From the NCBI GenBank assembly GCA_000934665.2, contig JYFJ02006199.1:1-46532 (forward strand): a stretch of DNA of 46,532 nucleotides, in the 5' to 3' direction. The DNA is from Catajapyx aquilonaris (taxonomy: Eukaryota). The notes under the pieces are model-generated. The model was not told the origin of the DNA, made no database searches, and worked only from the letters and a program-made list of their open reading frames with translations. Position numbers and translations under genes: made by a program. Within the stretch, counting starts at the first letter, position 1; each line of letters begins with the position of its first letter. Shown here piece by piece: positions 409 through 36,461 of the stretch.

Positions 409-458
409 CTTTCTAATTCCCTGTGTAAAAGGTTTCCAATAGTGATGGGCGCATGGAC
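409..458 (-). CDS. Gene B probable further exon (VHAPITIGNLLHRELE); gene continues beyond the window
   Basis: tttttag / ag|gtagtt, phase-0 start; weak similarity to gene A IELTLSSLLEANFE. Confidence 0.5.
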
Positions 459-883
459 CTAAAAATGCTAACTATTTCCACATTTGACAGGTAATGTTTA
501 TTTATAATGGAAATAATGCAAAGAAAATGATGCCAGGCCCACAAAATTTTATACACTAGGCAAATTTCCACTGTACTCTGTAATTTTAGTTCAATAAGTG
601 TGCTGGTCCAAACCACAACACTTCCATTCCAAAATAATCCTCTCACTTCTACATTATTTTAGCAACCAAACTTATGATCTGGTAAAAGCAATGGAGGAGG
701 CAAAGTATGGCACACAATAAGGCTGCTTTCAAATTGGTTCACAAATATAAAGTAGATTGAATGAGACTTTTACTTTGTATCTCGGAATTGCTATCCTCAA
801 ATCACAATGTTGGCCACACGCACACAGACACTGTGAGAAAGTGCCAGCGAATGTGTTGGATTGATTCTCTATAATCCTCTTAC

Positions 884-927
884 CTGGTAAATGAATATCC
901 AGTTTTCAGCTTCAGGATCAGGTGATT
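884..927 (-). CDS. Gene B exon (KSPDPEAENWIFIYQ), paralogous to the start of the gene A PARP exon (KAEVADEAPWVFVF)
   Basis: 44 nt, tttacag / cag|gtaaga, phase 1 to 0. Confidence 0.75.
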
Positions 928-1179
928 CTGTAAAGACCAAATAATGGAAATGAAATGCCTTCAGAATTAGTACTGCAAAGTTATGCAATGTGCAGATATT
1001 CAAGGGATTCCCGAAAACAAAAATTACACTGTAAATAGTGTCCTTTGTATACCACAATAGAGTTTCCATGAGGGGTAGTGAAAAGTATGTCATGCTGGTT
1101 GGTACTACAGAAATTATTCCAACATGATCATCATGATATGGGAAAGGGAGAGGTGAACAGGAGATCACATTCAAAAGTG

Positions 1180-2231
1180 CAGTAGAATCCCAATTACTCC
1201 ATCACCCATGGGACCAGGGCATGGTTGGACACCAAAAAACGTCGGATAATCCGAAGAGCAAAGAAAACTTTAAGGAAACCTTAAGGAAACCTTAAGGAAA
1301 CACCACAAAAAATCTATAAAACATGAAATTTAAATGTACAATATTATGGATTTTAAGAAATAGGGAAGTACATGTATTTATCTTTTACATACACACTCGA
1401 CTGTGTTGTATTTACAATTGAATAGCCCAATAGAACAAGGGCCGATCCCCATGGTGGAAAAAAGGTGGGGGTATAAGAAAAAATTCACCATTTGTAAACT
1501 ATTTGAGGTACACATGCAGAAGTTAAGTGAATAGGCCTGCAATCACCATGGCCTCCTATCTTGCGATTTTCACTCTGATAGGACAGGCAGGAAGCTGAAA
1601 TTTGTACTTTGGAGTTCGGCCCTTGTCCTATTGGGAAGGAGGCAGGGACTTGGTTAGGAAAAAAGGTAGGGGTGGAAGACAAAAAATCGTTGTTTTAAAA
1701 CTATTTGAGGTTAATGTATGAAAGTAAATCCTTTCTGTCCAAAATCGCCATGACATATTATGATGTGATTTTCACTCCGATACGACGAGGGGGTGAAGCA
1801 GGACACGGCACGAAACTTGTATTTTGGAGTTCGGCCCTTGTTCTATTGGGAAAGTAGATTGGATATTTTTCGAGTGCATGGAAAAATGAAATCAGGCAGG
1901 AATAGCAATCACGTACTGTACAATGCAATGTGCCTTGAATATTTTTATTAAGCTCTCAGTTGTCAGGGATATTGCTCTCTGATGAATCTCCTCTGCCACT
2001 GAAGACTCGATTTGGTGCATCACTGATTGAGGGAGAGTTTGGCATACTCAGAAAGAAATCTGTAAAGGCTTTTAACATTGGTCAGTTCCGAAGCCTTCAC
2101 CATTTGTGTAGTTGGTAATGCCCTGCCCTCCCGATTATCCGAGATTATGGCTGCACGGGTGTTGCCGGGAAATCGGGAAATGGTCCTAATACCATATAAT
2201 CAGATATTCAGAGGTTTTTAATGTACTACTG
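1180..2231. mobile_element. Degenerate pogo/Tigger-like element containing a nested TIR element (1426-1850)
   Basis: Starts cagtagaatccc, ends ..tactg|ta, with ggataatc/gattatcc subterminal motifs; internal TIR cccaatagaacaagggccga ... tcggcccttgttctattggg. Confidence 0.5.
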
Positions 2232-2252
2232 TACATACTGTATTCTGCTTTA

Positions 2253-3040
2253 TCATCATCATCATCATCACCATCATGACATTTCCCTATAAGGGGTAGT
2301 CAGCGATGACGGGAGCCACAAGCTAACCCAAAATATTAACTAAATTAAAACTTGCAAAAATAAACCTAGAAACAACCCGCCCTGCCCCCACCTCTGCCCA
2401 TCTCCGACGACTAACTCTCAATATTAAATTTAAATATTACACTATACAACGCGGTACTTTGCGAAATCCACACCCGAACTCCAAGTGCTGTGCAGAACAG
2501 AGAGAGAGGCAGACACCCTTGCAAGCATGACTACTGGTGTCAACCTATGCATTACTGTGCAAGAGATATTTGCCAACCTTGTAGTTCTGCACAGCACCCA
2601 GAGCCAGAGTATGAATTTCCAGAAGCCGACTCCTCCCACCAACCTGCAAACATTCTAGCCATTCGGAAGAATTCAATGGACACTGCCATTCCTCACAAAC
2701 CCATGAATATTCTACCCATTAATTAACCTACGCCATTTACACCTATCCAAACAAACAACCCTAGCCTCAGCCACGTCCATGGTCCTATTGACACATGAAC
2801 GTCTTGGCTTAACACTTGCAACACCCTTAAGACACTGACCCACCTGGTCCAACCATGTCTTCCTACCCTTGCCCCTCTTACCAACTACTCCACCCGAATA
2901 AACCTTCTTCACAATCTCCTCCTCCTTCATCCTCTCCACATGGCCAAACCACCTTATAGTAGGCCTACACACCTTATCTTTAACAGTCTCCTTAAGATTA
3001 GATCTCTGTGAAATCTCCTCATTCCTAATCCTATCCAACT
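2253..3040 (-). mobile_element. RTE-clade LINE 3' fragment
   Basis: DRIRNEEI..RWFGHVERM..KRGKGRKTWLDQV RT C-terminus; (TGA)n tail; the 3' UTR recurs at ~43920-44120. Confidence 0.85.
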
Positions 3041-3515
3041 ATCATGCAGGATATCAGGGCTCGTTTTGGTAAGGCGCCACTGAGAAGAAGTAACTTTTTC
3101 AAGTGGGAGAAAAAAGCATTCAGCATGGGAAATGTGAAAAGACACTTCCCTTGCTAAATGCTTTTTTCTCCCACTTGAACAAGTTACTTCTTCTCAGTGG
3201 CGCCTTACCAAAACGAGTCCTGATATCCTGCATGATGTGCGTTAGGTTCTTTCCCGTATGAGGTCTCTCGCAGACCCACACAGTAGCCACAAGTCTCTCC
3301 TCCACAGTGAACCCGCTCGTATCCGCCATCTTGCACTGTTAACATTGTTAATTTATTGTGGGCGTTGTTGGGGGTCGTCAGATGTCTCCCCTCATCAAAC
3401 AGTTCCGTCAGTGTCCAGAAGATGTTACACCAGCATCTCCGACACATTTTCCATGCACAGATTTGTTTTGCAGGCAAAAAAAGCCAGGTGTCCTGGGACT
3501 TTCCGCCCACTCTGT
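3041..3515 (-). mobile_element. Tc1-like element 5' fragment with HTH domain and internal foldback
   Basis: ORF 3120-3329 (FTVEERL..RTRFGKAPLRRSNLFKWEKKAF..GSV); ta|cagagtg terminus; 3041-3136 is an inverted copy of 3142-3236. Confidence 0.7.
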
Positions 3516-3620
3516 AGAGACTGGACACCATTGTACGATATATTTCGCGTACCCCCTAAATTGTGTTCGCGTACCCCAGTTTGAAAACCACAGAATTAGG
3601 GGAAACATTTTGCTCCCCTG

Positions 3621-4502
3621 GGGGAGGATTCACAAAAGAGCGCAAACAGATACACCTTCGTAAGTTCAGTTCATTTTTCGCAACTACTTACCACCGGGCG
3701 GATCTCTGCGCCTGGTCGGGGGGTACGTGTAAGTGGGAGAAGTGACATGGCTCCTATTTGGACCGGAGCTAGAAGTCAAAGATAGACCTCACCCAGCCTT
3801 TCCCCAGATAATCCGGGATCGCATGTGGACCCCCCCCCCGTTACATGCCGGCCATGGGTAGGCCTACTCACGGCGTAAAATCCGGCCGACGCGACGACAC
3901 TTGCTGCCGGCAGACGACGAGGGGTTAATCACTCGTCAAGTCCGTATACGCTAAACTTCCGAGTGATTTACCCCTCGGCACAGACAAAGCAACAGTTTCG
4001 GCCAGCTTTGCCTGACTGCCCACTGCCAATAGGTTATTTGTTTAGCTCGGGTAAGGAGTGGGAATAGTGGAATGTGTCCAAGTCCGGCTTGCCCCTAGAC
4101 AATCCGGCGGCAGCCTTGAGCGGGGGTCTAGCCCCAACCCTCAATAAACTAGTTGGTCTCCCTTTTTAAATTTCAGCCGAGTGCTACAATTTTCAGGTAT
4201 TCCACCAAAGATGATAACTCTTTCCAAGCTTTTTCCCACCTTCCCTTAGTATCTTTGCCTTCCGCAGGTTGGCGCTAGGGTGGGTTCTGGCTGGGTTCGG
4301 GTGGCCGTCTAACAACGCAGCCAATAGCGAGCCCCTTACATGACACGTGACTTTTACCCTTGTGCCCCCCTTACACCGAGTGCTGCGCCGCTTTGTGAAT
4401 CACTTTACACCTCTCCCTACAACCGGTTGTAAGGGGAGCGTAAAGATATGGGTGTAAATCACTTACGCGCTCGAAAGTTGCGCTCTTTTGTGAATCCTCC
4501 CC
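3621..4502. mobile_element. PIF/Harbinger-type non-autonomous element
   Basis: TIR ggggaggattcacaaaagagcgcaa at both ends; 3-bp TSD ctg. Confidence 0.8.
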
Positions 4503-4953
4503 CTGGGATGAGTGCACACTTATATCCTAATGTCACGAGCTTGTGAAACTGCACACAGACAACTTTTCCAACAACCTACTACAAGTGCCTGGCACTACTA
4601 CACCATCATGTTTCATAGAGTGAGATGATCGTGTTGCCATTAATTGATATCCTATCCTTGTAAATACCACTTATTGTTGCAATATGACTTCAGGCTTATG
4701 ACATGCACGGGGTATCAGTAATGCATTCACAGCACTATTAATTAATATGGCCCTTTCCAGCAAATGAAAGTTTTAGGCTGTGACAGGCCTGTTAGGCAGA
4801 CCCAGATGACTGAAAATGATTAGTCTATGGCTGCTTTTTTTCACTTAACTGGTAAAGAATATAAAATATATATCTAACATTATCACGTCACTCAGACCAC
4901 CCTAAAAATATTTCCTGCAACAAAACATCTCCGTTGATAAGATTTTCACTCAC

Positions 4954-5065
4954 TTATTGACTGCAGCATTGTCTTCTGCTTAGTCTGGTGAAGATATCGG
5001 CAGATCTGCTTCTGGCAGCCACCAGGTTTGCTTTCATCAGGGCATGGTGTACGTATTAGGTTGTT
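4954..5065 (-). CDS. Gene B exon: finger 3 (NNLIRTPCPDESKPGGCQKQICRYLHQTKQKTMLQSI)
   Basis: 112 nt, tttgcag / gtgagt, phase 0 to 1; paralogous to gene A exon 3 (ES.PGGCQK..C..LH). Confidence 0.9.
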
Positions 5066-5529: not shown

Positions 5530-5784
5530 CACTGGAACAGTGACGTTGGGTCTTTTAGGACCCCATCCATATTTTAATTTTTATTAATTTTTATATAATA
5601 CTTTTCAATGTATTGACAATATGCAATCATTCTTTGAACAATGCCTAAAATGATTGCTAATTCAAAATAAACATGCACTTCCACTTATATACTTTTAAAA
5701 AATGGCAACAGTTCATTGAAATTATCATTTAATGCATTTTAATTCCTATGGGGTCCTAAAAGACCCCACGTCACGGTTCCAGGG
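5530..5784. mobile_element. piggyBac-type MITE
   Basis: TTAA on both sides; imperfect TIR c(a/c)ctggaac.gtgacgt.gggtctttt; related end at ~24540-24556. Confidence 0.75.
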
Positions 5785-5838
5785 TTAAATGCTTACTATA
5801 AGGCCTTTCAAAAGTTCATTGAAAAACACTTGAATTAC

Positions 5839-7976: not shown

Positions 7977-8189
7977 CTGAAATGTTATGTATAAAATTGA
8001 AGCTTAGTTTTTCAATAGCTGGTCCCTGAGTTGCAAAAGTATGACAGTTAAAGTTGAGAATTGGGAATTTTTTCAAATATGAAATGGCCGCAGCAGGCGC
8101 AAGGAACCTGGAAGAATTGCAATATTAATTTTGACGGCAATTACAGATAATGGCAAATATGTTGAGTCACATATTGTTCACTAATAATA

Positions 8190-8780
8190 CAGGGTGTTTC
8201 AGAGCCACGGGTCAAGCGCGCGTGAGGGGGTGGAGAATAATCGTAGGTGGCGACAACCCCGGTCGGTTTTATAAAAGAATTAGAAATACTACAGTAATCA
8301 ATTTATTTATTACAGCCATAAGGCATGACGTCACGTCCTACTTTTTGTTCTAATTGACAGGCGTGGAGTGGCAAATGCAAGGTAAATGCATTGGGTTGAA
8401 CCTGGTAGACCTTGCGGGTTGCACTGAAAAAGGAGCTCTCGTGCTACACTGGCAGGGTACTGAACACACCACTGTACAGTAGTACACTACGTTGTACAGT
8501 ACCCTGCCGGTGTAGCATGAGAGCGCGTTTTTCAGTGCAACCCGCAAGGCTAAAAACCCGTCAACCAGGTTCAACCCAATGCATTTGCCTTGCATTTGCC
8601 ACTCTGCTCCAGTCAATTCGAACAGAAAGTAAGATGCGACGTCACGCCGTACGGCCGTAATAAATAAATTGATTACTGCCGTATTTCTAATTGTTTTATA
8701 AAACCGACCGGGGTTGTCACCACCTAGGATTTTTCCCCACCCCCTCGCGCGCACTTGACCTGTGACTCTGAAACACCCTG
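8190..8780. mobile_element. Palindromic Tc1/mariner-type MITE (copy 1)
   Basis: ta|cagggtgtttcagag ... ctctgaaacaccctg|ta; nearly the whole length is self-complementary; second copy at 38839-39391. Confidence 0.9.
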
Positions 8781-9053
8781 TATATTTAATAAAATTTAAA
8801 TATGCATGCATGATTCCCCATTGTAAATTTATTTTTTGATTGTATGGACTAGCATAGTTGCGTCACATTATAAAGCACATGCACCCGCTTTATCTGCCAT
8901 CTAGCAATCCTCTAATCATCCCGACATACCAATTGATCCGTTTCACTGACACAAATGTTACGTTAATAATAAAACATGCAGTGAAAATGTGCCGCGTACT
9001 GCAGTTACGACAAATAAGTGGTCTCCAGTTAGGAAAAGTTACTCCGTAATATA

Positions 9054-10989: not shown

Positions 10990-11475
10990 CTGTGGGTTAC
11001 AAAAGTTTTAAAGAATTTGTAAACGAGAGGGGAAAATAATGGAGAAGTATGTGATTATTCTCCTAGTGTGGTGCCTGTTTAAGCACCTCAATTTTCGAGC
11101 TTGTAGTGAAATAATCATTTATCAGCTGTGACTCAAACTGCCATACCCTTGTAGATCAGCCTGAAACGTGAAATTTGACAGCATTTTTGTCTCTTTCAAC
11201 ACAAAAGAACATGGTTTTGCTGGCTCCATCTCTCAGAAAAGATGCGTAAGCAAGAAAGGGACCTATCCCCTACATCCTCCCCCTCCTGCCCCCCGAAAAA
11301 GCAATAAGCTTTTAATCGGTGAGAAAAAACCCCTCCTTCCCATTCTATGTGCATCCTATTCCTCCCCACTCTTTCCTAATGCATGGGATTATGGTGAGGA
11401 AGGTCCCGGGTTTTATGCCAAGCCTGAGTGTACGTTTGCATTTCGTGCAGTTAGACTATCTCCAGCTTCATCTCA

Positions 11476-12525
11476 CAAGCAAAGTAACTTTTCTTACCCT
11501 CCTGGATTTTGATAATTTTTATAATTTTAATTCTGCTTGGCCTATAGTGTTGGGAAAACATCACCTCCGCTGCTAAATTCCACGTTAGCAGGGTGAAAAT
11601 CCAGCCTAAAGGCGATGTTCCGTAAGCCACAACACCAGCGTTCGGTCGCGAGGCGCTCGTCCCGGCTACCCCGGTCGCGGTCGCCTTTCACCGCGTCTGT
11701 AGCTCTCTCCGTTGCCACGAAGAAGAAGGGTCACCTCGCACGCTTTGAAGTCGAAGGCGATTATAATAATGGAGAGCCAGGACAGGGGGCATAATACTAC
11801 ATAAGAGGCGCAAACATTCGATTCGCCTGTCTCTGTTTGATGGGGCCAACGGTGGCGGCCATTTTGAAGAGAGGCCAACGAGGTGTAAATAGGGTACAGG
11901 CAGGCCAAAGGTCTGCCATCTTTGATGGTTTTGGCGGCTGAATTTGAATCTTTTTGCCGTATGAGCTCCTTTAATGCACTTTTCTACGTATTAATTCTGT
12001 AAGTACGGCAAAAATATTCAAATTCGCCTGTGTTCTAGCCGTGAAGTGCCATGGCCGCCGCCTAAACAATCAAAGATGGCGAAGCTTTGGCCTGCCTTGC
12101 CTGTACCCTATTTACACCTCGTTGGCATCTCTTCAAAATGGCCGCCACCGTTGGCCCCATGGTTGGCCCCATCAAACAGAGACAGGCGAATCGAATGTTT
12201 GCGCCTTTATGCTCCCTGTCCTGGCTCTCCATTATTATAATCGCCTTAAACTTCAAAGCGTGCGAGATGACCCATCTCCTTCGTGGCACCGGAGAGAGCT
12301 ACCGACGCTGTGAAAGGCGACCACGACCGGGGTAGCCGGGACGAGCGCCTCGCGACCGAACGCTGGTGTTGTGGCTTACGGAACATTGCCTTTAGGCTGG
12401 ATTTTCACCCTGCTAACGTGGAATTTAGCAGCGGAGGTGATGTTTTCCCAACACTATAGGCCAAGCAGAATTAAAATTATAAAAATTATCAAAATCCAGG
12501 AGGGTAAGAAAAGTTACTTTGCTTG
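11476..12525. mobile_element. 1.05-kb foldback element with ~450-bp inverted arms
   Basis: caagcaaagtaacttttcttaccc ... gggtaagaaaagttactttgcttg; 3-bp TSD tca. Confidence 0.85.
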
Positions 12526-13020
12526 TCAGGTAGGATTTACAATCAACTGTCTGGGGGAACTCACTAAAAAATTCCCAGTGACATGCTACTGCATTACGTC
12601 ACATAAAGCGGCATGCCGGTGTAGTCGAGGTCGACCAGTTTTTAGAAATGCATGATCTGGTGGCTATACTGGCAAGTGAGGTATGCAGGTATATTTGCCT
12701 GAAATCGAAATCCATAAAATGGCTATCGAAAAGACACATTTTCCTAATCTAAATACCGTATTCGCGAGACCCACGGCCTGTAGAGGCGCTGAAGTCAAAT
12801 CCAAGATGGACGACAGGGGGGGGTACTCGAGCAGGCAGCAGACAGGGCATGAGCTTGGCAAGAGGCAGGGAGAGCAGCAGACAGGGCTGAGCACGCGCTA
12901 TGTGGGCCGGGAGGGGGCCTGGGTGGGCAGGTGGGGCAGGCCCTGGGCCGAGGCAGAGAGGTAGCCGAGCCGGTACCTACGCAAATAGCTGGGAGAGCGG
13001 CTCGGCTGTTTAGGGGAGTG

Positions 13021-13830
13021 GGTCCAGACGTGCATGGTGACATTTGGGAATTAATTGCGGCCAAACTAGAGGTTGGAGGAGGGTGACAATGCTCCCGTCA
13101 TCGAGAGGAGATTTCGATTGTTCCGACGACGTCCGCAATTAAATAAATATCCACGGGTTATTTTACGGGGGAATTAAATAGGAAATATCTCGGCAGCTGG
13201 CAGGCTGCTGTAACTGTATGGGTCCAGGGGTGCATGTTGACCTTTGGGAATTAATTGTGTCCCGACTAGAGATCGGAAGAGGGTGACAATGCTTCCGTCG
13301 TCGAGAGGAGATTTCGACTGTCCCGACGACGTCCAATTTAGTATTACAGACCGGGCGGCTAATTTACGGGGGAATTAAATAGCTTATATCACGACAAAAA
13401 CCGCTGGACAAAAGAGGTCTGCTTGACTGTAACCGCGTCTGGGTCCAGAATGCAGAGTGACCGTTGGGAATTAATTGCGGCAAAACTAGGGGTTGTATGT
13501 GTGTGACAGTGCCCTCGTCGTTGAGAGGATATTTCAAATGTTCCAACGACGACCGTATTTGCTATAAATGCCCACTGGTTATTTTACGGAAGAATTAAAT
13601 AGGGAATATCCCTAGAAATCTCTGGACGAGAGAGGTCTGGCTGACTGTAACCGTATGAGTTCAAAATGCAGGGTGATCTTTGAGAATTAATTACGGGCAA
13701 ACTAGGATTCGGAAAAGGGTGACAGTGTCCCCAACGTTGAGAGGAGATTTCGATTGTCCTGACAATGTCCATAAGTAAAATAAATTCCTACGAGTCATTC
13801 TGCGGGGTAATTTAATAACTAATTTCTCGA
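13021..13830. repeat. Tandem array of four diverged ~200-220-bp units
   Basis: Recurring gggaattaatt..actag..ggtgaca.tg..gagaggagatttcga..ccgacgacgtcc..cggggaattaaatag starting near 13021, 13221, 13441 and 13657. Confidence 0.85.
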
Positions 13831-18236: not shown

Positions 18237-19039
18237 TGTGTGTGCTGCCTTAACACCTAGAAATAAAAATGAGCTTACAGTAAATACTTGAGTGGCTTCA
18301 TAAATCAGGTCTGCTTATGGCAAACAGCTCATGTCATGGCCACATTTAAAAGCGACAGTAAGGATAAATTTCGTAAGCAGCAAATTCATTGTCCATTGTG
18401 GTTGTCAGCATGTGATAACAATCAATGCATTATGAAATACGTATTTGGTCAACTGGGGACATCACGTTTGGCTTACACTCCCATGCAGATGTTCTTCCAA
18501 AAGCGGACCCCCCCTCCTCCTCCCATCCAAACTGTTTAGAGACCATCATAAAGGTGATTAATACCCAGGAATCCTACACCCTATCTCACTGCTGGACCAA
18601 TGAACAATGGTTAGATCATCTAACCTAACCTACCCTTCCCTTGCCTACACCCTTTACCCAATAATCATGCAGGTATGGTATGCAGATTATAAAGTATTCT
18701 AGTCTCATATTATTGATCCACCCTGAATCACTCATCATTATTCTATTTTCACATCAACACCATCAGAGCACCACCAGTGCCTGGCTGATATCCTCTAAAA
18801 ATTGACACAGCATGAGGAACTGATGGTCCTTGAAGTAAGTTTTCCGCCACTGAATTACCTCTCCAACGCAATTGGGCTTACTCGCTTACACTACACAACA
18901 CATTCAGTCATTTTCCTGGCAAAAGTAGTGGATTTTCAGTACTTGAGTGTAAACTAAAGCAAACATTTACCACCATCAGTTCCAAATGCCGCAGCCGTGT
19001 TTAGAGGGTGCAGATGGATAGGATTGAAAATACTGACAA

Positions 19040-21779: not shown

Positions 21780-23413
21780 CCCTTAACTACATAGGTGAAG
21801 CCTGAGAGGCTCCAAGCACTATTTAAACGCATGTAACTTTTTCATTGAATTTTATTTTCCCCTGTCCTTCCGTGACTTCGGAAAAACCTTCGTAAGCATG
21901 GGAAGGAAAGAAAAAAACTTTTAGTCCCTATTCTTTGGTTTAAAAAAAATCGTAACGAGGAACAGGTCCCTCCTGGAACCGCTCAGGCTCTACGGGCTCT
22001 ACCTATGCAGGTGAAGCCTGAGCGGCTCAAACATGATGTAACCTTTTAACACTTAACCAGCAACGTGAATCTGCCACACACTGGCTACGACGTGGGGTAT
22101 TTCCCGACCCCACGCAGTTTTCATTTTTTTAAAATTTGCCTTAACTCTTAGGGCGCCGGTTGACATACGGGTGAGAACAAGACTTTGCGAATTTTTTACG
22201 GAACTTCAACAATGCGTAAATGAATGCGGTTTTCACCCTCTTCGCAAGCACTATAAGTAGAACTTATAGCACTAAAGCCATTCTTCCGCGCTAAATTCGG
22301 CCTGTATTCTCATCTGTATGTGTAAAAAAAATCGATCTCCTGTGACTATTAGTTGAGTCATAAGGGACTTGAGACTCTGTTATCGCACCTTCGTAGCCTT
22401 CCAGCTCGATGCCGCAAGTAATGACTTATAATGTAAACATTCCCAGCTGCAGGGTCTGCAAGATTTCAGTTCCGAGCAATATTTATTGCTCACACTTTAT
22501 AAAATACAATTTTGCGGTGATGTGATGTGATGTGCTCTCTAGAAAATTATGTACATTGGCTACGACGTGGGGTATATCATTCTGTACCCCACAGGGATGC
22601 TTAGCAGCAGAAAAGTACCGGTAACTCCGCAAAAAAAAATTCTACTAATGTCAACATTTTTCTTGGATCGAAGAAAGTATGTCTGAGGAATACAGGCCTG
22701 CCATTTTTCATTTCATACAAAATGTATTAATCGCGATGGTATTAACTACATCGTGGGGTAGAAAAATACCCCACGCTGGTGGTTAAGTGTTAATTTAAAA
22801 ATTTTCCCTGTTGGAATATGCTGACTCAGCGTGTGATTTTTACGTTTTCGGAAGCCTAATGATCTGAACTGCACTTTCTATATGTGAAAAGTCCAATATA
22901 ACAATTTAGTTGATAAGCAGAAATTTAAATATACCGTTGGAGCCTCTCAGGCTCCACCTACGTAGGTGGGCAAAACACCTTTAACTACGTAGGTGGAGCC
23001 TGAGAGGCTCCAACGGTATATTTAAATTTCTGCTTATCAACTAAATTGTTATATTGGACTTTTCACATACAGAAAGTTCAGTTCAGATCATTAGGCTTCC
23101 GATAATGTAAAAATCACACGCTTAGTCAGCATATTCCGACAGGGAAAAATTCTTAATTAAAAGGTTACATCATGTGTCAGGCTTCACCTACGAGATATGA
23201 GCCCGAGCGGTTCCAGGAGCGACCTGTTCCTCGTTACGAATTTTTTTAAACCAAACGATAGGGACTTAAAAAAAATTTCTTTCCTTCTCATGCTTAGGAA
23301 GGTTTTTCTGACAAAGTCACGGAAGGACAGGGGAAAATAAAATTCAATTAAAAAAGTTACATGCGTTTAAATAGTGCTTGGAGCCTCTCAGGCTCCACCT
23401 AGGTCGTTAAGGG
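21780..23413. mobile_element. Palindromic piggyBac-type MITE with nested TTAA element (22050-22789)
   Basis: ttaa|cccttaac ... gttaaggg|ttaa; inner ttaa|cacttaacca ... tggttaagtg|ttaa; empty TTAA site in the mirror arm near 23155. Confidence 0.9.
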
Positions 23414-24973
23414 TTAAGATCCGGTGTGGTCAGGTCAAATAAACTTCACGGTACACATCAATTTCACATGTACAATAAGGACTGTCAATTTCATATCACA
23501 TCAATCCATGCTCCTCCACACATACCTGTTTGCACTCCTGACACTTGTATTAAATTCTGACTTCCATACTTTACAACCCCAGGCGTGGGCTGTATGTTGC
23601 AAGTCAGTAGGGAAAAGCAGGGAAGTTGTCTCTGTCTTTGCTGTGCTCCCAAGCCCTGCACTGATAAGAGCCTGGTTCACGGACTGCAGGATGAAAATAT
23701 TCCGACGTTGCCAACAATATTCAAATAAATACGACCTATTCCTGCCTAAATTAATACCAAACTTTAACTCGATACACTTACACAAATAGATAAGTGGCAA
23801 CAGGTCTAATTACAGATGACGGTAAAGGGCAAAACCGGCAGGTATCATAAATACGGTATGGCACCACGTGCTACATTGGCCGAATCAGTCCTCCGGGGAA
23901 ATCCCCCGCGTCTTCATTGAATCAACACATGAAAATTTCCTTAAAGAGAGTTGTTATATAAATTAATATGCAGGCAGGTGTTTAGACAGCCATATTTGAT
24001 AAGGTCTGATGCTTGTGGCGCGCCACTTCTGTTCAGGAGAATGAGAAGAATGGAGGTTTGGGTTCATTTCAGTGCCACTTTCATTATTACCCGCCGAGTG
24101 GTGCTGAGAGAGGTGCGATTCACCTATGCTTTATCAGGCTTTATCCACGCTTTATCATTGAACATCTGTTAAAATGGCATATTCCTGTTGGGATAAAATT
24201 TGCTTGGAACAGGCATATTATCATTAATCAGTAATTTAGTGTTCATTTTCACTATAATCACGACCACCACATCAAACAGCCATGTAATTTTTCCCCAAGG
24301 AATAAAATGCATTAAAATGATCATTACAATGAACTTTTGCCATTTTTTTACAGTATATATAACAGGAAGTGCAGGTTTATTTTGAATTAGCTATCATTTT
24401 AGGCATTGTTCAAAGAATGATTGTAGGTTAGATACAGTCAATACATTGAAAAGTATAATATAATAATTAATAAAAATTAAAATAAGGTGGGGTCCGAAAA
24501 GACCTCACGGGACGGTTGCCGTAATACTCTCAGGCACGGCACGGTTCCAGGGTTAAGTCCCTCTATCTAAAGTGATGTCGATCACCATACACTACAACCA
24601 ACACAGTAATAAATCAACAAAGAAACAACAAATACTACTGCATGTAATTGTGCAGATGATCAAGGGCGATTAATGGCGGAAAGCCAATGTAGACTACATA
24701 TTTTTAACAATTTCAAGCAATTTTAAAAATAAACCTCATTATAGCCAGAAAGGAAGTGTCATGAGCATGAATGTAGGCCTAAAGAGGGAACATTCTTAAT
24801 GCTGCATGCAATGTCCCAGCATTTGCTACGCCGTTACATCAATAACTGTCACATTTTTAAAAGGGTGGTTTTCATGATCAATAGTAAATCCAAAAACAAA
24901 ACAAAATCATGGCTGATTCTTATCACTGCTAGAAATTATTACCAACAATGAATACTATAATGCAATCAACAGC

Positions 24974-26305
24974 TTGATTATGTCTGAATTTACTACCTCC
25001 CTGAGAAAATTACTAGCAATGGGCAGGAGAACACCCAACTACCTGCTTCGGTTGGAGACAGGCCAACCTCCATTGAAAGTTAAAATTATCCTATTAGCCC
25101 TTAAATATCTTAGAAGAGTCTGTAACATGGAGCCACATAGACTACCACACAGGGCCATGAAATCCCTCATAAATCAGAACAGTGGCCCAATAAAATATAA
25201 CTGAATCAAGCAATTAGATAAATTACTTAACGAATACGGGCAATCAATAAGCAATTTCACGGTGAAAGATGATGAAAACTGGTTGCGGAAGTATGCCATA
25301 ATAGCACAAACAATGGTGGATGTCGAAGTCAAAAATTATATTGAATGCCTCACCAAGTCAACCTCGAACAGTGTGAAATTGATATACTATGACCAATATA
25401 GATAGTTAGATACTTCCCCTCCCAATATGTTAAAGCCTTTGCCCCTTTAAATCTTCCCTTTAAATCCCGTAAACCTTCTTTTTGGGAAATCCTGAATGGC
25501 TTCGTGCAATATATTTTCTGAAAGGTCTAATCATAACTACGATTCGAGCCAAATATTAGCGGCAGTCCGCCACTCATTCTCGACTTATGAGGGTTTGAGG
25601 TCAACATGGGGGCTATGGGGAGCGATGCTATAATTAGTCATAAAAAGTGTTTCAAAAAGAAAAGTTGGTGGAGATTTTAGGCTCAGGGTGTTTTTCGTTC
25701 CACTTGGATAAGATTTTTTTCTTTTTTCTTTTTGAAACACTTTTTGTGACTAATTATAGCATCGCTCCCCATAGCCCCCATGTTGACCTCAAACCCTCAT
25801 AAGTCGAGAATGCGTGGCGGACTGCCGCTAATATTTGGCTCGAATCTTAGTTATGATTAGACCTTTCAGAAAATATATTGCACTAAGCCATTCAGGATTT
25901 CCCAAAAATAAGGTTTACTGAGTAGAATAGCTGGCATTAGATTTAATTCTACTTGTAACTGGATACCACTAGGACTAGGAAATAATAGAAGCCTCCTAAT
26001 CAATCCTGATGAAAATTGTAACTTATGCAACCAAATGAATGTTAACGACTGGGTCCACATCCTCAGTGAGTGTCCTATGTTCCAGGGAGGTAGGGATAAC
26101 TGGATAAGTTACAACTACATATAACAATTATTATACAAAAGAGATAATATTTGGCCAATCTTATATGAACCCACGATAGAACAACTGAATGTGATTTATT
26201 TTTATTTCACATATGTGGCAAAATGGCATGACAATATTTCGTAATGACAATACTTTAACTTACCATGTCTTGCTCCCCACTGCAACCTGCAATTGTAAAT
26301 AAATC
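24974..26305 (+). mobile_element. Decayed non-LTR retrotransposon ORF2 3' end, interrupted by a MITE
   Basis: TPNYLLRLETG..PL..KY..M..RLP and downstream CNLCN..WVHILSECP zinc knuckle. Confidence 0.75.
25469..25918. mobile_element. Palindromic MITE (copy 2 of the 19040 family)
   Basis: Near-identical arms to 19040-19471. Confidence 0.85.
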
Positions 26306-27842: not shown

Positions 27843-28538
27843 CTCCTTCGGTACCAGATCTAGGCGATGAGATTCGCTTCTGTTCAACTTGCACGTACTC
27901 TGAAGATACACAAGATATTTTACAAAAAATAACCGCTATACTAACACATTCATGCTGTACACTATGAATATGTTTGGAACCATTTTCCACTTCTAGAATT
28001 CGCAAAATTAATTTCCAAAAAAATCGCCGTAAAAACTCGAAATTAAATTACAGCCAACCAACTGTTAGGCTGATTTCATTATGAAATACGTTAAAATAAA
28101 CGGAATAACAACCTTGAGAATCGTGTTTTAACGAATCAGCTGAAATCGTCACACTTCATGAGAATTAAATTCATACTTACTGCGGCTTGCCTCCCACTTC
28201 GGAAACTCCAAAATTCATTTAATTCTCACAAGTACGACAGTTTCAGCAGATTCATCACAGCACAATTCTCAAGGTTGTTATTCTGTATATTTTAACATAT
28301 TTCATAATTAAATCAGCCTGACAGTTGGCACGAAGTGATTTAATTTCGAGTTTTTACAGCAATTTTTTTGGAAATTAATTTTGCAACTTCCAGAAGTGGC
28401 ATATTCATAGTGTACACTGTACCGCATGAACGTGTAAGTATAGCTGTTATTATTTGTAAAATATCTTGTCCATATCTTCAGAGTACGGGCAAGTTGAACA
28501 GAAGCAAATCTCATCGCCTAGATCTGGTAGCGAAGGGG
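27843..28538. mobile_element. Old palindromic piggyBac-type MITE
   Basis: ccttcg.taccagatctaggcgatgagatt.gcttctgttcaacttgc inverted at both ends; gggg|ttaa at the right end. Confidence 0.75.
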
Positions 28539-30565: not shown

Positions 30566-30642
30566 CTGTAAAAAATCAATATTGTATTATTTCTGTATTT
30601 ACAAAATAGTCTTGCATTAAGTCTCACAAATCCACCACTTAC

Positions 30643-30742
30643 TTTTGTCCCCACTATTCTTTGTGTGCAAGAATGGGCAATGCTCTTTTTGGCATCCACC
30701 TGGCTGACTTTCATAATAGCAGGCCACAACTGAACGATTGAC
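30643..30742 (-). CDS. Gene A exon 3: third ZC3H11A-type CCCH finger (VNRSVVACYYESQPGGCQKEHCPFLHTKNSGDK)
   Basis: 100-nt exon, ctttag acceptor, gtaagt donor, phase 0 to 1. A 77-nt intron joins it in frame to the PARP exon. Resembles ZC3H11A finger 3 (CYWENQPxGCQK..C.F.H). Confidence 0.9.
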
Positions 30743-31105
30743 CTAAAGCATAATAAAAGAATTAACAAAGAACCTAACTGAAAATATTACAATAATTCTG
30801 AATTAACCTTTAAGTAGCATATAGATTTGACCATACTTGGAACCACGGCCTATTACTTAGGTCACGCAACTCCTTCCCCCTGTGCGCGAGTTTTGCTGCG
30901 CATGGGCTTGGCGCTGCCTTCCTCCACAGAGCACAACTTTGACGTCCCGTTCGGGTGGCTGGCTCTGCGACTTTCCCTACCGACCCAGCTGCATTGGAGA
31001 GAATGGTTCCGGTTGGTTCAGAAAAGCATCCGCCCGAATGTGACGTCAAAGTTGTGCTCTGTGGAGCGATGCCAGGGCCAAATAGAACATTCTACCATGG
31101 GGGGN

Positions 31106-31106
<1 letters not shown>

Positions 31107-31142
<36 letters not shown>
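31107..31142. repeat. (GA)n microsatellite next to an N base
   Basis: Seen directly. Confidence 0.95.
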
Positions 31143-31143
<1 letters not shown>

Positions 31144-31698
31144 AACTAAGCTCATGCCCTTCCCTGTATAGCTAGATAGGGAGTTGCAGGGGGGTGCTTG
31201 GAACCAAGATGTGTACAGTACATTAGTTCTATCAGTCAAATATTTTTGCATCTGATCACTTATGCACTTATCACTTGCATTACTTATGAGAAAGTGGTCT
31301 TGGATAATATTTGGATTATAGTTGACATTGATTTATAGTCTGGACAGTCCCAGGTATTCACATTATTAACATGACCAAAATTAATATGCAATTATGTGTG
31401 TAATGGAACTGAAGTTTCCAAAATCTGAAAAATTTTGTCTTATCAATTAGAAGAAAACATCAGTCTGAGACAAAAGGCACACTTGTTTCCAACACACTGT
31501 ACATGACAGAGAGAACATGATATTTTAAATGGTACAACACGGGCTAGGAGTAGTACCAGTATTTTGGGCTTTCTCAAAAGTTGGTTCATTGGACTTGTGG
31601 TTTTCGTAACAACTGATTCAAATATTCTCAACATACTCTCTAACATGGATTGCACCTCATGACGTATGGCATCATATCCACTTAATATAGCAAATCTA

Positions 31699-31871
31699 CA
31701 GGGTGACTCTAAAGTCAGGATACATAGGTCATTGGATTGTTTGTTTCCAGTTGTGCCAACTACCAGTTTGTTCACAGTCAGTAAAGGTACAGTTGGCAGT
31801 TGGAGTTGGCACAACTGGCAACAAACGCTGCAATCCAATTACCTATGTATCCTGACTTTAGAGTCACCCTG
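31699..31871. mobile_element. Tc1/mariner-type MITE
   Basis: ta|cagggtgactctaaagtcaggatacataggt ... acctatgtatcctgactttagagtcaccctg|ta. Confidence 0.9.
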
Positions 31872-33199
31872 TATATTCACTCTCTCCACAGATGATTTGG
31901 AAAAGCAGGTTTGTACAGCAAGTGATTCACCTAGAATTAAGGTCTAAACTCATATCAACTTGAAACTCCGACTTGTACGTGTGAGTCACACTTTTGCTTG
32001 CGGAAATGACAGATGCATGCGATGGAATGCTGTTGCTGCGAATGTGCAGGTCTCTGGTTGATTCTCACTACACGCAACTGTTGGCAGTGCCGTGTGTTTG
32101 TGGCTTTGATTTACCACTGGTAGATCGTATGCGCAAGCACATTCCACAAGCACGGCCCCTGGTAACCCATCACCGTCCCTGTGGGTGGTCACATGGGACC
32201 CTCCTGCTTTCCATGCACACTGTCCCCTTCTCTTAGCATCCCTGCCAATTGTTGCTGTTCGATTCTTGCACTGTTTGATTATTGCACTTCATGCCATAAT
32301 GCACATGCATCCTCGTGGAATAATTTGAAGGCTCATGTGCAGAGGAGGATGGAATCCAATGTGCACAAGTTAGAGTTTCAAGTCAATATAAGTCTGTACA
32401 CAAAATACATTGTGGCTTTCAAGATACCTACTGAAACAGTCCACATAGAGGAATACCGTATTACTTCACTTAAAGCGGCATGCCACAATAACAGAGGTCG
32501 ATTTCCATGATTTTGATCCTTGTCAAATTTTTTGGAATGCTTCTGGTAGAGTACCATCCTAAAATAATGTTATGGTGGAAAATGTGCCAGTAAAGGGCTG
32601 TGAGAATATGCAAGTTCATCTGTTGCACATGGTATACAGTGTGACCAATCCCATATTCAGCCTGCTATGAGAGGGGAACCCCCCTAAACATTACAAAGGA
32701 ACAAGGCAAATTCCTTCAGTCCTTCGTTGTGCTCAATAGTTCGCTGGTCACAGATCTTATTGGTGATCAGAGGATCACTTCAAGTAGTTGTATTAATTTG
32801 TCTGAGAAGTCATGTTACTTAGATAATAAAATCCAAACTCAACATATGAAATATCCTGGTAGGTATGCTTCCCTTCTTGCAGTCTTGCCCTTTTAATTGA
32901 AAATATTGCCGTGAAATCTTAACTCAAAATACGATCTTATAGGATGTGTCAGGCATAAGTGTCCTGGGCTATCGGCATCATAGAACATATATTCATTTGA
33001 ATAATAATAATTTTCGCAGACTGCGTGATAATGCTGTGTTCAAGAAAAACTCCCCTCATACCAGCATACCTCACTTAGACGGGCATGCCGGGATAGCCAC
33101 CAGATTGTGCATTTCTAAAAACTGGTACTACACGACTACACCAGCATGCCGCTTTAAGTGAGGTAATATGGTCACATCTTGTACAAAAAGTGATCTCAC

Positions 33200-33319
33200 C
33201 TTCAGATTCATGTGACGAAATTCACACTGAGGTTTGGTGCATGATTTCTTCAGCCAAAATTTGCAGACAACTTCATTTTTCCGTGCAGCTGGTTCGTGTC
33301 GATACAAGCACTGTTCTCC
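33200..33319 (-). CDS. Gene A exon 2: end of finger 1 and finger 2 (GEQCLYRHEPAARKNEVVCKFWLKKSCTKPQCEFRHMNLK), ZC3H11A-type
   Basis: 120-nt exon, ttgcag acceptor, gtgaga donor, phase 0/0; close to the ZC3H11A N-terminal finger sequence. Confidence 0.92.
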
Positions 33320-34721
33320 CTGCAATAATACAGGAAAATTATCACATGTAATAATGGCAGTAACTGGTAACATACTTGTCCAACATTAAAATACATAAAT
33401 GATGTGGATGTGGTCATTACAATGTATCATCCCTGTAAGATTAATTTTTCCGTGACATCACATTTTAAAACCAGTAATTCACAATATGACCATAATCAAT
33501 ATTCATGGATTTTTTTTCTCAACCAGAACAGTCTCTTTAGGCTCAATATTTGTACACATGTGGGTCATTCCATGTCAATTCACCAAGCCCCCTGACCCTT
33601 GGGTTGTCAGATCATGATGAAAAACGGCACATCGCTTTAATTACATCCTCCAAGAATACCATTTGCGTGGTTTTGCAATTTACCCCCCCTCCCCGGAGAT
33701 ACTCCCACCGAAAAAAAATTGCCTTTTCGGAAGGTAAGGTTTCAGAAATCGGTTATATATCTTGAACCAATTGAGCTATAGAGGTCATCCACCACTCTAT
33801 TTCAATGTATTTGAGAGCCCAATCTCCCTTACCATTAAAAATTCGGATTTTGACTTTTTTGAAAATTTTGTCACATTTTCAAAATTTCAAATTTCTTTTT
33901 GAAGAATTCCTCCCAATTTAAAAAATCCGATTTTTAAATCATGATAGCTCAGACCCTTTCCTTGACCTAGAAAAATATCCAAGTAGGAGTTTTTTGACTT
34001 AATCCTGTAATGCCCACTGGGTCATATCTGGCACACCATTTCGTGCAATTTTTGCAATTTTTATATTTCCTGTAAGTGCCAAATTGCACTAAATGGTGTG
34101 CCAGATAAGACCCATTTGCATTACATGCATTACAGGGTTAAGGAAAATAATTGTACTTGAAGAAGTGCATCTGCATGTGCACCCAATAATTACACTAGGC
34201 GCCATATCATTCTCATGTCGTTCATGATGGAAGCAGAATTGGAAACAAGTTGGTAGCAAACCTTTTTAGACTAATTCGACCACGCTGATTTGGAAAATCG
34301 AGGTTAGAACTCTAGATTTCGGATCCTTCTGACACAAAAACAAGATGGCGTCCAAGGTTATGGCATTTATAAGAATTACAAGGCAGTCGCGAATTTTTGC
34401 CCTAAATGTGGCATGTGAGGTGTGGTTTTAGGAGTTCTGGGTCGATAAGGTCAACCCTGAGTGACCCAAGGTCATATGACGTCACTGGAAGTAGAAAATT
34501 TGAAGTGACAGGTAGTTTTACGGACTTGAAAGATCTCGTTCATTGCACACAGATAAAAGTTACGGAATACGTTGTGACAGCTACATTATGTTACATTATG
34601 ACAAACACATAAGTCTTTGATGCTAACCATCAGACTGGGTTCAGTGCTTACCGGTAAGTGAAGCCATTTACGTGTACCTGTATATCTATGGTAGTACCTG
34701 TGAGCATTTTGTATTTGGGTT

Positions 34722-34726
<5 letters not shown>

Positions 34727-34784
<58 letters not shown>

Positions 34785-35541
34785 TAATAATTCTTGGGTA
34801 GTGCCTGACCCTATATAGGGTATGCGGCCCGGACCTTTATTGTAACTTGTAGTACATAGACCATATTTTTGAAACGCCCGGGCCCACGGGCAGGATGACA
34901 GGAGGGGATGTGCAAGGTGCAGTGCAATGTCTTAATCTTGGCCATTTTTAGTGAACTCTCCCGGTGGTTTAGTCTATTGGAAATACCACCCGAGACGAAG
35001 CCAGAGGTGACCCTGAACTCTGCACGAGATGAAGGGGGTGTCCCCGGGCTGGGATACTCGGGAGTCGGGACCTTAAAGGGACACTCCACTCATAAAACAA
35101 GTTTGGCTCTAAAAATCGGGCAAAAAATCCTGAATCCGAAGGTGCAATCCGTTTTTCGCTACACGGAACGGTAATCCCAGGGCGAGGGGTCAAAGTGGGG
35201 AAATTCAAATAGTGCGCTAGAAGCTGGCCATCCGCCAGCGACGCCCTCGGGACCTTGGGAACTGGAGGGCTGCTCCCGCCTGCCCACGCGCTTAGGCCCA
35301 TCCCAGAGCGGTGCAGCCTTCCAGTTTCCCTGTTCCCCGCGTGGAGGCGCCGCTCATTAGCAGACGACACACTTTGACACCTCGCCCTGGGATTACCGTT
35401 ACACGTAGCGAAAAACGAATTGCACCTTCGGATTCAGGATTTTTTGCACGATTTTTAGAGCCAAACTTGTTTTTTGAGTGGAGTGTCCCTTTAACATCCG
35501 TGGGCGCATACGTTACCGCAGCACCACTCCGCCTCCCTTAC
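34727..35541 (-). mobile_element. tRNA-derived SINE with 12-bp TSD, interrupted by a TTAA MITE
   Basis: TSD ttgggttacatt (34715-34726 and 35542-35553); (TTA)n tail; homologous to 9657-9955. Confidence 0.85.
35077..35490. mobile_element. Kolobok-type MITE (AG..CT termini, TTAA TSD)
   Basis: ttaa|agggacactccactca ... tgagtggagtgtccct|ttaa; ~120-bp inverted arms. Confidence 0.8.
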
Positions 35542-36296
35542 TTGGGTTACATTGCTCATAGTTATTACGGATGCATTTCATAGCACTTCATGTTTGTCAT
35601 AATGTAATATGTTATTGCCAGATAACATATTCCGTGACTTTTATCTGTGTGCAATGAACGAGATCTTTCAAGTCCGTAAAACTACCTGTCACTTCAAATT
35701 TTCTACTTCCAGCAATGTCATATGACATGGGCCAGAAGGGCTTACAAACCCGGATTTCTTTCACTATGGCTGGATACCCTTCCAGTCGGAGTCCTTGACA
35801 AAAAATTTATTCCACCCTGGGATTTCAAGCCCTTTTGGTTTTACAGGCCTTTGAAATTGGAAAAATGTATCATTTTTATGGCTATATTGAAGCTCATTAA
35901 AGTCCCAGTTACCAATATTTTATCTTACATGTATATACATATTCTAAAAGGCCAAGACCTCTAGTTTCATGCAGTGAAATTCAGAACATCCTATGTTTGA
36001 CAGAAACCAAACGGCAGCCTCTTTTCAAAACCCCTGTAAAAGCTTGTTTTTGCTTGTCGCAGTGAAGAAAATTGAGTGTGAATCTAAGATGGTGACACAT
36101 AAAAAAATTAACTAAAATAGTTTTGAGTACATCATTATCAAGGCCACCCATGGTGAAAATATTTTAAAAAACTAGATGGTCGAGCAACCATCTAATATAA
36201 AATTGGCTGATTTCACATGGAATGCTACAATGAGCTGCTTCACCTACAGGCATGACTATCTCACTTTAGTTGTAACGGATGTGTTATTGTGCATAC

Positions 36297-36461
36297 TTTG
36301 TCACATTTGGAGTAGTAGTAGTAATAGCAGTCGTCAGCATTTTTTTGCACTCCTGTGGCATGTCCATGTTGAGCACCTCTTCTTGTACCTCTACTTGGAG
36401 TGGCATGACCCTGGCCCCTGCCGAATGGAGAGCTGTTCCTGGGTGTTGATGATCTACTCAT
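36297..36461 (-). CDS. Gene A first coding exon: RG/S-rich N-terminus + start of finger 1 (MSRSSTP...DDCYYYYYSKCDK)
   Basis: Acceptor tgttgcag before 36469, ATG at 36461, gtatgc donor after 36297, 55 codons; DCYYYYYSKCDK matches the ZC3H11A finger 1 start. Confidence 0.88.

Follow-up and report, generated by a model that had tools for sequence, protein, structure and literature searches.

ZAP (PARP13, ZC3HAV1) and PARP12 select their RNA targets through N-terminal fingers. In these proteins and their crustacean relatives (such as Penaeus XP_069972632 and Procambarus XP_045581066), a winged helix and four ZAP-type fingers precede a ZnF-WWE-WWE segment and a PARP domain. PARP7 (TIPARP) displays a single CCCH-WWE-WWE-PARP core without a ZAP-type head and is not known to contain ZC3H11A fingers. 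One source defines zinc-finger PARPs by a ZnF-WWE-WWE module with a PARP domain after it, links this ZnF-WWE-WWE-PARP module with antiviral immunity across animals, and describes the human enzymes as ADP-ribosylating alphavirus proteins (PMC11784840). Residues W611 and Q668 of ZAP are required for PAR binding, as stated in two further sources (PMC8853533, PMC9720839). ZC3H11A (zf-CCCH_3, PF15663) combines three tandem CCCH fingers with a long C-terminal region; its fingers are necessary for RNA binding, and the protein serves in mRNA export, where viruses take advantage of it, and is not an antiviral factor (PMC5910864).

The locus described here occupies a window of 46,532 nt, the whole stretch of DNA analysed, from Catajapyx aquilonaris (GCA_000934665.2, contig JYFJ02006199.1, positions 1 to 46,532, forward-strand coordinates). 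Its gene A is, according to the exon model, a chimera in which three ZC3H11A-type fingers (PF15663) stand 77 nt upstream of a ZnF-WWE-WWE-WWE-PARP exon. Gene A shares with PARP12/ZAP and their relatives the order ZnF-WWE-WWE then PARP, the H-Y-I residues of human PARP12, equivalents of ZAP W611 and Q668, an N-terminal CCCH RNA-binding type of head and an RG-rich leader; it differs in that three ZC3H11A-type fingers take the place of the four ZAP-type fingers and the winged helix, a further WWE is present, a single exon encodes the entire module and identity is only about 30-40%. With ZC3H11A it has in common the three tandem fingers, their family spacing, 44-60% identity to homologues and the same intron positions, whereas WWE and PARP domains occupy the place of the long C-terminal region. 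The TIPARP core is similar, but the tree places the gene A module apart from vertebrate TIPARP, and TIPARP, unlike gene A, has no ZC3H11A fingers in domain lists. The unusual part of the locus is this combination of ZC3H11A fingers with a PARP12-like module, the ZAP-type RNA head being missing. Among the papers listed in literature searches, none concerned a ZC3H11A-PARP/WWE fusion.

Organization of the locus

As originally noted, gene B lies downstream of gene A on the same (minus) strand. The exon models of both genes are predicted from genomic sequence alone (Table 1), with GT-AG borders in 8/8 modelled introns of the two genes together. The predicted product of gene A comprises 659 aa, and the gene B frame is open over 389 aa and runs on past the left edge of the window. 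Against PF15663 (Pfam cut-off, 31 bits), two exons of gene A score above the threshold (exon 2, 46.8 bits, E 3.9e-12; exon 3, 39.7 bits, E 6.2e-10), and exon 1 matches profile positions 2-18 under it (E 0.017); in gene B, the 120-nt exon scores above it (34.3 bits, E 2.9e-8) and the finger-3 exon below (20.1 bits, E 7.7e-4). Three candidate micro-exons in the gene B intron at 883-459 were left out of the model. Seventeen other open reading frames of the window have no Pfam family match, and no tRNA genes were found within it. A sequencing-run search matched 5 runs, with no RNA run among those listed; one run of unstated type contains 0.88 of the words, which splicing or polymorphism could explain and which carries no evidential weight.

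Table 1. Predicted features of genes A and B (positions within the window)
Feature	Positions	Strand	Length and phase
Gene A coding exon 1: ATG, RG-containing leader, first half of finger 1	36461-36297	minus	165 nt, phase-0 end
Gene A exon 2: end of finger 1, finger 2	33319-33200	minus	120 nt, phase 0/0
Gene A exon 3: finger 3	30742-30643	minus	100 nt, phase 0/1
Gene A phase-1 intron: predicted junction of ZC3H11A and PARP12-like modules	30566-30642	minus	77 nt, GT-AG
Gene A exon 4: WVFVF linker, ZnF5-type CCCH, WWE1, extra WWE, WWE2-type, PARP, stop	30565-28971	minus	1595 nt, phase-1 start
Gene B predicted coding exon 1 (exon of lowest certainty)	18236-18133	minus	104 nt, phase 2
Gene B exon 2: low-complexity tract, RG repeats, predicted helical stretch, first half of finger 1	10989-10251	minus	739 nt, phase 2/0
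Gene B 120-nt exon: end of finger 1, finger 2	5958-5839	minus	phase 0/0
Gene B finger-3 exon	5065-4954	minus	112 nt, phase 0/1
Gene B 44-nt exon, carrying WIFIY	927-884	minus	phase 1/0
Gene B 50-nt exon, last within the window	458-409	minus	phase 0/2

The PARP12-like exon of gene A

Exon 4 of gene A matches Pfam PARP (E 2.4e-26), WWE in two stretches (E 1.2e-25) and WWE_4 (E 0.002), and the ligands of its ZnF5-type CCCH finger are C182, C190, C195 and H199. The resulting ZnF-WWE-WWE-WWE-PARP architecture corresponds to the core of the zinc-finger PARPs (the PARP7/12/13 group) with one extra WWE, whose score was equalled by 0/500 shuffles. H543, Y576 and I639 line up with identical residues in human PARP12, forming the H-Y-I catalytic set of PARP12-type PARPs, and W369 and Q428 align with W611 and Q668 of ZAP WWE2 in 7KZH, the ZAP numbering having been placed on that chain by hand. 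Judged from these alignments, the PARP12 catalytic triad and the ZAP PAR-pocket residues are intact in gene A. An alignment-based fold model of the exon (pLDDT 79), good apart from the extra WWE (modelled residues 163-232) and two short stretches (1-25 and 320-324), has human PARP12 as its top fold match (rmsd 1.8); a single-sequence fold (pLDDT 31) was discarded.

In the module tree, the WWE-PARP part of gene A is placed amid crustacean PARP12-like proteins (SH-aLRT 99). Matches to zf-CCCH_PARP12 and the winged helix are absent from gene A, its N-terminal fingers being of the PF15663 type. It does not have the five CCCH fingers in ZAP/PARP12 configuration that have served as the criterion for orthologues of these proteins (PMC8102003). 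Close relatives of genes A or B were not found, identities ranging from 25 to 44% among the matches listed. The top phmmer matches, P0121 and P0122, were rejected as close kin, both being multi-PARP repeat proteins.

Exon layout of the fingers

Both genes carry three tandem PF15663-type fingers at ancestral intron positions. The repeated layout that had been described for the pair (an intron within finger 1, a 120-nt 0/0 exon, a phase 0/1 finger-3 exon and a phase-1 acceptor) is correct in its exon phases. The two layouts agree only as far as the phase-1 acceptor, after which gene A has one 1595-nt exon and gene B exons of 44 and 50 nt; gene B also has, relative to gene A, an additional 739-nt exon ahead of finger 1. 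The layout had been read as the mark of a special family, a reading that is not supported, as it is the ancestral layout of ZC3H11A. The finger 1 acceptor falls at the same codon in 40/41 other loci with an interrupted finger 1, and the exact 120-nt exon occurs in 33/39 interrupted ZC3H11A-type loci of other organisms. Among 17 distinct finger-3 exons, the first strong donor is in phase 1 in 8 and in phase 0 in 1, with none within 100 nt in the other 8. Because the layout is ancestral in ZC3H11A, it does not reveal a special family or an arms race, and the observation is itself ordinary. The 259 kb surrounding 67 further loci of ZC3H11A type, mostly on short contigs, contained no WWE-PARP match.

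Kinship of genes A and B

The 120-nt exons of the two genes do share 15/40 residues, as had been noted, with 59/120 nt identical. As a sign of closeness this figure was rejected, since gene B scores at least 15/40 with 8/37 unrelated ZC3H11A-type exons. The shared [a/g]tgttaag start of the first coding exons is present as described, an acceptor with atgttaag at 36469 in gene A and an acceptor with gtgttaag at 18256 in gene B; tgttaag occurs at 1/113 acceptor-like sites between the gene A stop and gene B exon 2 (0.005 expected), and this site is one of only two that provide a start codon, a frame free of stops and a donor in phase 2. W[IV]F[IV][FY], likewise confirmed, has exactly two six-frame matches in the window, one in each phase-1 exon, and is missing from 232,415 residues of retrieved proteins. 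The fingers of A and B have 6 residues in common that are rare elsewhere (4 for B's next best partner). The post-finger match is weak and depends on the gap penalty (shuffle p 0.009-0.046), and in the finger tree, where gene B sits on a very long branch, A-B sisterhood is neither established nor rejected (AU p 0.22). An old or fast-evolving local family had been proposed; the local paralogy is partly supported, by tgttaag, the 6 rare residues and the weak post-finger match and not by the exon layout.

The restriction-factor-like rapid evolution suggested for the pair is not shown: conservation of the gene A fingers is close to that of ordinary ZC3H11A fingers (median 57% identity to 13 homologues, compared with 64% among those homologues), and only gene B is accelerated (35%). 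Since the gene A fingers show no acceleration, the pattern is not that predicted for an arms race; the link to restriction factors arises from the PARP12/ZAP-like C-terminus of gene A. The Cys/His zinc ligands are all present in both genes. The conserved aromatic finger columns are kept at 12/12 in A and 5/12 in B, which has lost 7/12 relative to ZC3H11A. The N-terminus of B carries RG repeats and a long P/Y/Q/H/S-rich low-complexity tract of granule type, exon 2 having no Pfam match above cut-off. Beyond its finger exons, 31 residues are visible, with a weak match to the gene A linker and none to WWE. The W[IV]F[IV][FY] linker was rejected as a remnant of the PARP12 winged helix (that of A is matched by 99/500 shuffles and that of B has no match); nor is the linker common to A and B clearly a WWE, its scores being equalled by 11/500 and 51/500 shuffles. 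In the atlas, the linker had no usable match and gene A exon 2 gave only generic CCCH clusters, under 0.9.

A predicted fusion in Armadillidium

ZC3H11A-type fingers, WWE and PARP also occur in one chain in the woodlice Armadillidium nasatum (KAB7501409.1) and A. vulgare (KAL7642884.1, RMT77_006172). These proteins are gene predictions, annotated just as PARP12 or hypothetical, and could be merged models; RMT77_006174, the locus-tag neighbour of RMT77_006172, is a non-fused PARP12-like protein. The fusion was found in 1/262 retrieved PARP relatives (Armadillidium) and in 1/14 proteins of the finger-region search, although the homologue searches with the finger region are shallow (1 match among 4 candidates; 14/374, with a partly misregistered alignment) and may miss further fusions. 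In Armadillidium the fingers precede a complete PARP12-like protein, whereas in gene A they replace its head, and the PARP module of the isopod fusion belongs to a different subclade from that of gene A. Woodlice appear to have arrived at a comparable hybrid independently.

Proposed splicing and duplication, and alternative explanations

The ZC3H11A-type finger exons and the PARP exon of gene A are very probably spliced into one mRNA. It is highly improbable that no fusion exists, with a short ZC3H11A-like protein made from the finger exons and a different transcript containing the WWE-PARP exon. Exon 4 is indeed a self-contained intronless block and the junction is predicted from genomic sequence, but exon 4 cannot start on its own because its first Met falls within ZnF5, its phase-1 acceptor requires a phase-1 donor, the nearest of which, that of exon 3, is 77 nt away and is the sole strict-donor-pattern match across 30566-36000, and read-through of exon 3 reaches a stop in few codons. 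The window has no further PARP12-type exons upstream and, with 321 proteins as queries, no match to a ZC3H11A C-terminus or a ZAP-type head; by tblastn of ZC3H11A homologues against gene A, the finger exons alone match and the long C-terminal region is absent. Gene B, in turn, is probably an old tandem duplicate of the 5' part of the chimera, with about an even chance of ending in WWE-PARP. That it is a separate ZC3H11A-derived gene without a WWE-PARP end, resembling A through exons common to ZC3H11A-type genes, is unlikely: the ancestral layout, the finger identity of 38% to A against 30-37% to the remaining finger modules, the unrelated exons that equal A as matches to B and the small post-finger exons where A has a single large one would all fit, but the common tgttaag start, the shared rare residues, the matching phase-1 placement of the linker motif and the adjacency of A and B on one strand argue for duplication.

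Two other alternatives concern the origin and the role of the chimera. A single early-pancrustacean ZC3H11A-PARP12 fusion, ancestral to gene A and the isopod gene, with one of them later exchanging or converting its PARP module, would be consistent with the finger tree, in which A joins the isopod fusion (80/81, not significant), and with 5 rare finger residues common to the two. It is nevertheless improbable: monophyly of the two is rejected by the WWE-PARP tree (AU p 0.00018), where the isopod fusion pairs with a non-fused paralogue from isopods (support 97), the isopod protein retains the entire winged helix and ZAP-type fingers that are missing from A, and the fusion is as rare among retrieved proteins as stated above. 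Less easily set aside, though still the less favoured reading, is a real chimera engaged in routine RNA work (mRNA export, stress- or germ-granule control), the pair reflecting ordinary subfunctionalisation and no defence gene. The exploitation of ZC3H11A by viruses, the ordinary conservation of the gene A fingers and the granule-type N-terminus of B agree with it; against it stand the tie between the C-terminal module and animal antiviral immunity and the many divergent PARP12-like paralogues of crustaceans, whose heads have been exchanged for others, ankyrin repeats among them. Nothing was found in the literature on antiviral PARP12 in crustaceans or shrimp.

Proposed function and implications

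The chimeric zinc-finger PARP explanation, with gene B as a duplicate, is as a whole somewhat favoured. It proposes that the first three ZC3H11A coding exons were copied, ending at their natural phase-1 donor, and joined to a single-exon ZnF-WWE-WWE-PARP segment, with one extra WWE, of the crustacean-type PARP12-like family, the ZC3H11A fingers standing in for the winged-helix and four-finger RNA head. The fingers of gene A would bind mRNA as those of ZC3H11A do, the ZnF-WWE module, like that of ZAP, would bind (poly)ADP-ribose, and the PARP domain would put single ADP-ribose units on proteins at or near the bound RNA; by analogy with the characterized proteins, these three activities are jointly quite likely. 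Gene A would then be a PARP12-like effector re-aimed at RNAs read by ZC3H11A fingers, and it may, with roughly equal chances either way, act in RNA-granule stress or antiviral control. In gene B, zinc binding would have been retained while the surface likely to contact RNA changed and a low-complexity N-terminus of granule type was acquired.

A wider and decidedly tentative possibility is that arthropod PARP12-like antiviral enzymes recruited the RNA-reading module of ZC3H11A at least twice independently, that this genome holds a small diversifying hybrid family in which A keeps the ancestral RNA specificity and B has a new one, and that the fingers of a virus-exploited mRNA-export host factor serve as a bait or targeting head for ADP-ribosylation. 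Gene A already bears on the report that arthropods lack ZAP/PARP12 (PMC8102003); if its host is a hexapod, it would also bear on, and overturn, the published claim that hexapods lack the ZnF-WWE-WWE-PARP module (PMC11784840). A natural swap of the ZAP/PARP12 head for that of ZC3H11A, apparently made twice in arthropods, offers a test of the modularity of these enzymes, and gene A a test of whether invertebrate defence employs RNA-guided mono-ADP-ribosylation.

Gene models and exon layout

Gene A and its downstream neighbour gene B, zinc-finger genes on the minus strand, were modelled by six-frame translation and splice-site inspection of the window, and are known from genomic sequence alone. 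The four coding exons of gene A give an uninterrupted open frame of 659 residues; the six exons of gene B encode 389 residues before the frame exits the window past position 409. These models, with GT-AG borders in 8/8 introns, bear out the original prediction of a same-strand pair with matching finger-exon layout. The 15/40 residue identity of the 120-nt exons was reproduced, as were the two occurrences in the window of W[IV]F[IV][FY], each opening one gene's phase-1 exon. Beyond the phase-1 acceptor the layouts diverge, and gene B carries a 739-nt low-complexity exon without counterpart in gene A.

Features of the two genes and surrounding repeats
Feature	Position	Strand	Details
Gene A coding exons	36461-36297, 33319-33200, 30742-30643, 30565-28971	-	junction phases 0, 0, 1
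Gene B visible exons	18236-18133, 10989-10251, 5958-5839, 5065-4954, 927-884, 458-409	-	phases 2, 0, 0, 1, 0, 2
Upstream ATG, gene A	36469-36458		created by tgttaag; three-codon frame overlaps main ATG
Additional WWE, gene A	~29700-29490		residues ~296-360
Tandem array	13019-13826		four copies, 200-220-nt unit, 72-87% alike; gene B first intron
Inverted-repeat pair	11472-12529		323 nt; adjoins tandem array, gene B first intron
MITE-like elements	8177-8793, 22790-23160, 27982-28404, 35068-35499, 38836-39394		short inverted repeats, numerous; some present twice, at a distance of 30 kb
AAT microsatellites	~6600, ~7600, ~34730
Decayed reading frame	3-290	+
Decayed reading frame	2715-3038	-
Decayed reading frame	24917-25402	+

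The tandem array and inverted-repeat pair look like a transposon end or remnant. The three decayed frames had no match in Pfam; they resemble the end of a Tc1/mariner transposase and the tails of non-LTR retrotransposons.

All five segments scanned as finger-bearing matched zf-CCCH_3 (PF15663, the three tandem ZC3H11A-type fingers), three above the curated cut-off, and the gene B finger-1 exon scanned alone gave no PF15663 match. Metagenome contigs, partly redundant but diverse, were scanned with an alignment of 11 homologues, and 65/67 loci contained the finger motif. Fifteen were continuous across all fingers; the acceptor fell at the same codon in 40/41 loci with an interrupted finger 1, and an exact AG-120 nt-GT exon occurred in 33/39 interrupted on both sides (22/28 distinct peptides). 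Among 17 distinct finger-3 exons, the first strong donor was in phase 1 in eight and phase 0 in one, with none within 100 nt in eight. Nine of the 15 residues common to the 120-nt exons of A and B occur in at least 35/37 unrelated exons, and the gene B exon scores at least 15/40 against 8/37 of them. Since this layout recurs across ZC3H11A-type loci, the exon conservation between A and B is, judged from these comparisons, the ordinary ancestral one. A different layout is seen in some such loci (L002-L004, L009, L020, L021), where finger 1 has no intron and the interruption comes close to the end of finger 2 instead.

Probable kinship and divergence of gene B

The original prediction of an old or fast-evolving local family, as a pattern typical of restriction factors, is partly supported: its layout is the norm for ZC3H11A-derived genes, but signs of kinship exist. 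The tgttaag motif is indeed present at both first-exon starts. Of 113 sites resembling acceptors within the 18 kb that precede gene B exon 2, one carries it, against 0.005 expected; the sole other ATG-plus-phase-2 candidate there falls in an inverted-repeat arm. Because the test was post hoc, it counts as support, not proof. A and B also share six rare finger residues (B shares at most four with any other row) and a weak post-finger match; their sisterhood in the finger tree is neither shown nor rejected (AU p 0.22). At the tgttaag position creating the upstream ATG in gene A, gene B has G and no such ATG.

Gene B fingers are 38% identical to those of A and 30-37% to others. Median identity to 13 homologues is 35% for B and 57% for A, against 64% among the homologues themselves; the fingers of A look conserved. 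Gene B keeps all Cys/His ligands, but only 5/12 conserved aromatic columns, against 12/12 in A (finger 1 columns are uncertain owing to a one-residue insertion); aromatic residues next to cysteines contact RNA in such fingers. Its N-terminus contains a tract of 125 residues rich in P, Y, Q, H and S, and also RG repeats.

Gene A as a predicted chimera

Exon 4, the last coding exon of gene A, contains in Pfam a weak WWE_4, two WWE stretches and PARP, and its relatives among the matches listed are crustacean and vertebrate PARP12-like proteins, none close. The CCCH finger ahead of the first WWE (ZnF5) is nearly invariant across a 60-row alignment; H543, Y576 and I639 line up with human PARP12 residues, and W369 and Q428 with ZAP W611 and Q668, whose mutants lose PAR binding (PMC8853533; for W611 also PMC9720839). 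An additional WWE, absent from most aligned relatives, sits between WWE1 and the WWE2-type domain (0/500 shuffles as high, two profiles). The alignment-based structure model (pLDDT 79) best matches human PARP12.

In tblastn with 321 fetched proteins, matches were confined to the finger exons and exon 4, and neither the ZAP-type winged helix with fingers 1-4 nor the ZC3H11A tail was present in the window. The first Met of exon 4 falls within ZnF5, and its acceptor requires a phase-1 donor, which finger 3 offers 77 nt away. Taken together, these points make it very likely that gene A is a chimera of ZC3H11A fingers and a PARP12-like module. Under the five-finger definition in PMC8102003 it would not count as PARP12/ZAP.

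The whole CCCH-WWE-PARP module occupies the single 1595-nt exon 4, whereas the matching start in gene B is split into 44- and 50-nt exons; the contrast may have arisen in A, through retroposition or loss of introns, or in B, through their gain.

Origins of the predicted fusion

Among 262 proteins fetched with exon 4, only Armadillidium nasatum KAB7501409 contained a ZC3H11A module (59% over 70 residues); it clusters with A. vulgare RMT77_006172, and was the only PARP protein of 14 fetched by fingers. In this isopod fusion, known from predicted proteins, the fingers stand in front of an entire PARP12-like protein. In a quick LG+G4 tree built on the last WWE and PARP (gene A plus 52 proteins hand-picked from ~300 fetched; midpoint root), gene A falls in a group of PARP12-like sequences that come mostly from crustaceans (SH-aLRT 99). 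The sister of the isopod fusion in this tree clusters with isopod proteins that lack the fusion, of which one bears a neighbouring locus tag. A single fusion origin followed by module exchange would agree with the finger tree (85 columns), which resolves little and weakly joins A to the isopod fusion (80/81), but the PARP-module tree rejects their clade (AU p 0.00018), and two separate origins are the better reading. P0125 and P0128 (Halocaridina rubra KAK7082352), crustacean PARP12-like modules with the top two BLAST scores against the gene A WWE-PARP among the 52, show another head swap, with ankyrin repeats where the zinc-finger head would stand.

According to PMC8102003, arthropods appear to lack ZAP/PARP12, a claim contradicted by crustacean PARP12-like database records. 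PMC11784840 places the ZnF-WWE-WWE-PARP module in crustaceans, not hexapods, and PMC4245714 describes Tribolium proteins having PARP and sporadic WWE only. No ZC3H11A-PARP fusion was found in the literature, with subscription journals mostly outside scope; supplementary sequence lists of PMC11784840 and PMC8102003 could include such proteins.

Proposed function

What the window appears to hold is a PARP12-like enzyme headed by ZC3H11A fingers, next to a diverged tandem partner; isopods provide a probable case of convergence. The domains and residues of gene A are read directly; confidence falls from its splicing to its activity to a defence role. Human ZC3H11A fingers are required for RNA binding and recognize purine-rich motifs (PMC5910864), and alphaviruses are restricted by human zinc-finger PARPs, which modify their proteins (PMC11784840). 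Most likely, the fingers of gene A would bind mRNA, the ZnF-WWE part would bind ADP-ribose chains, and the PARP domain would mono-ADP-ribosylate proteins on the bound RNA.
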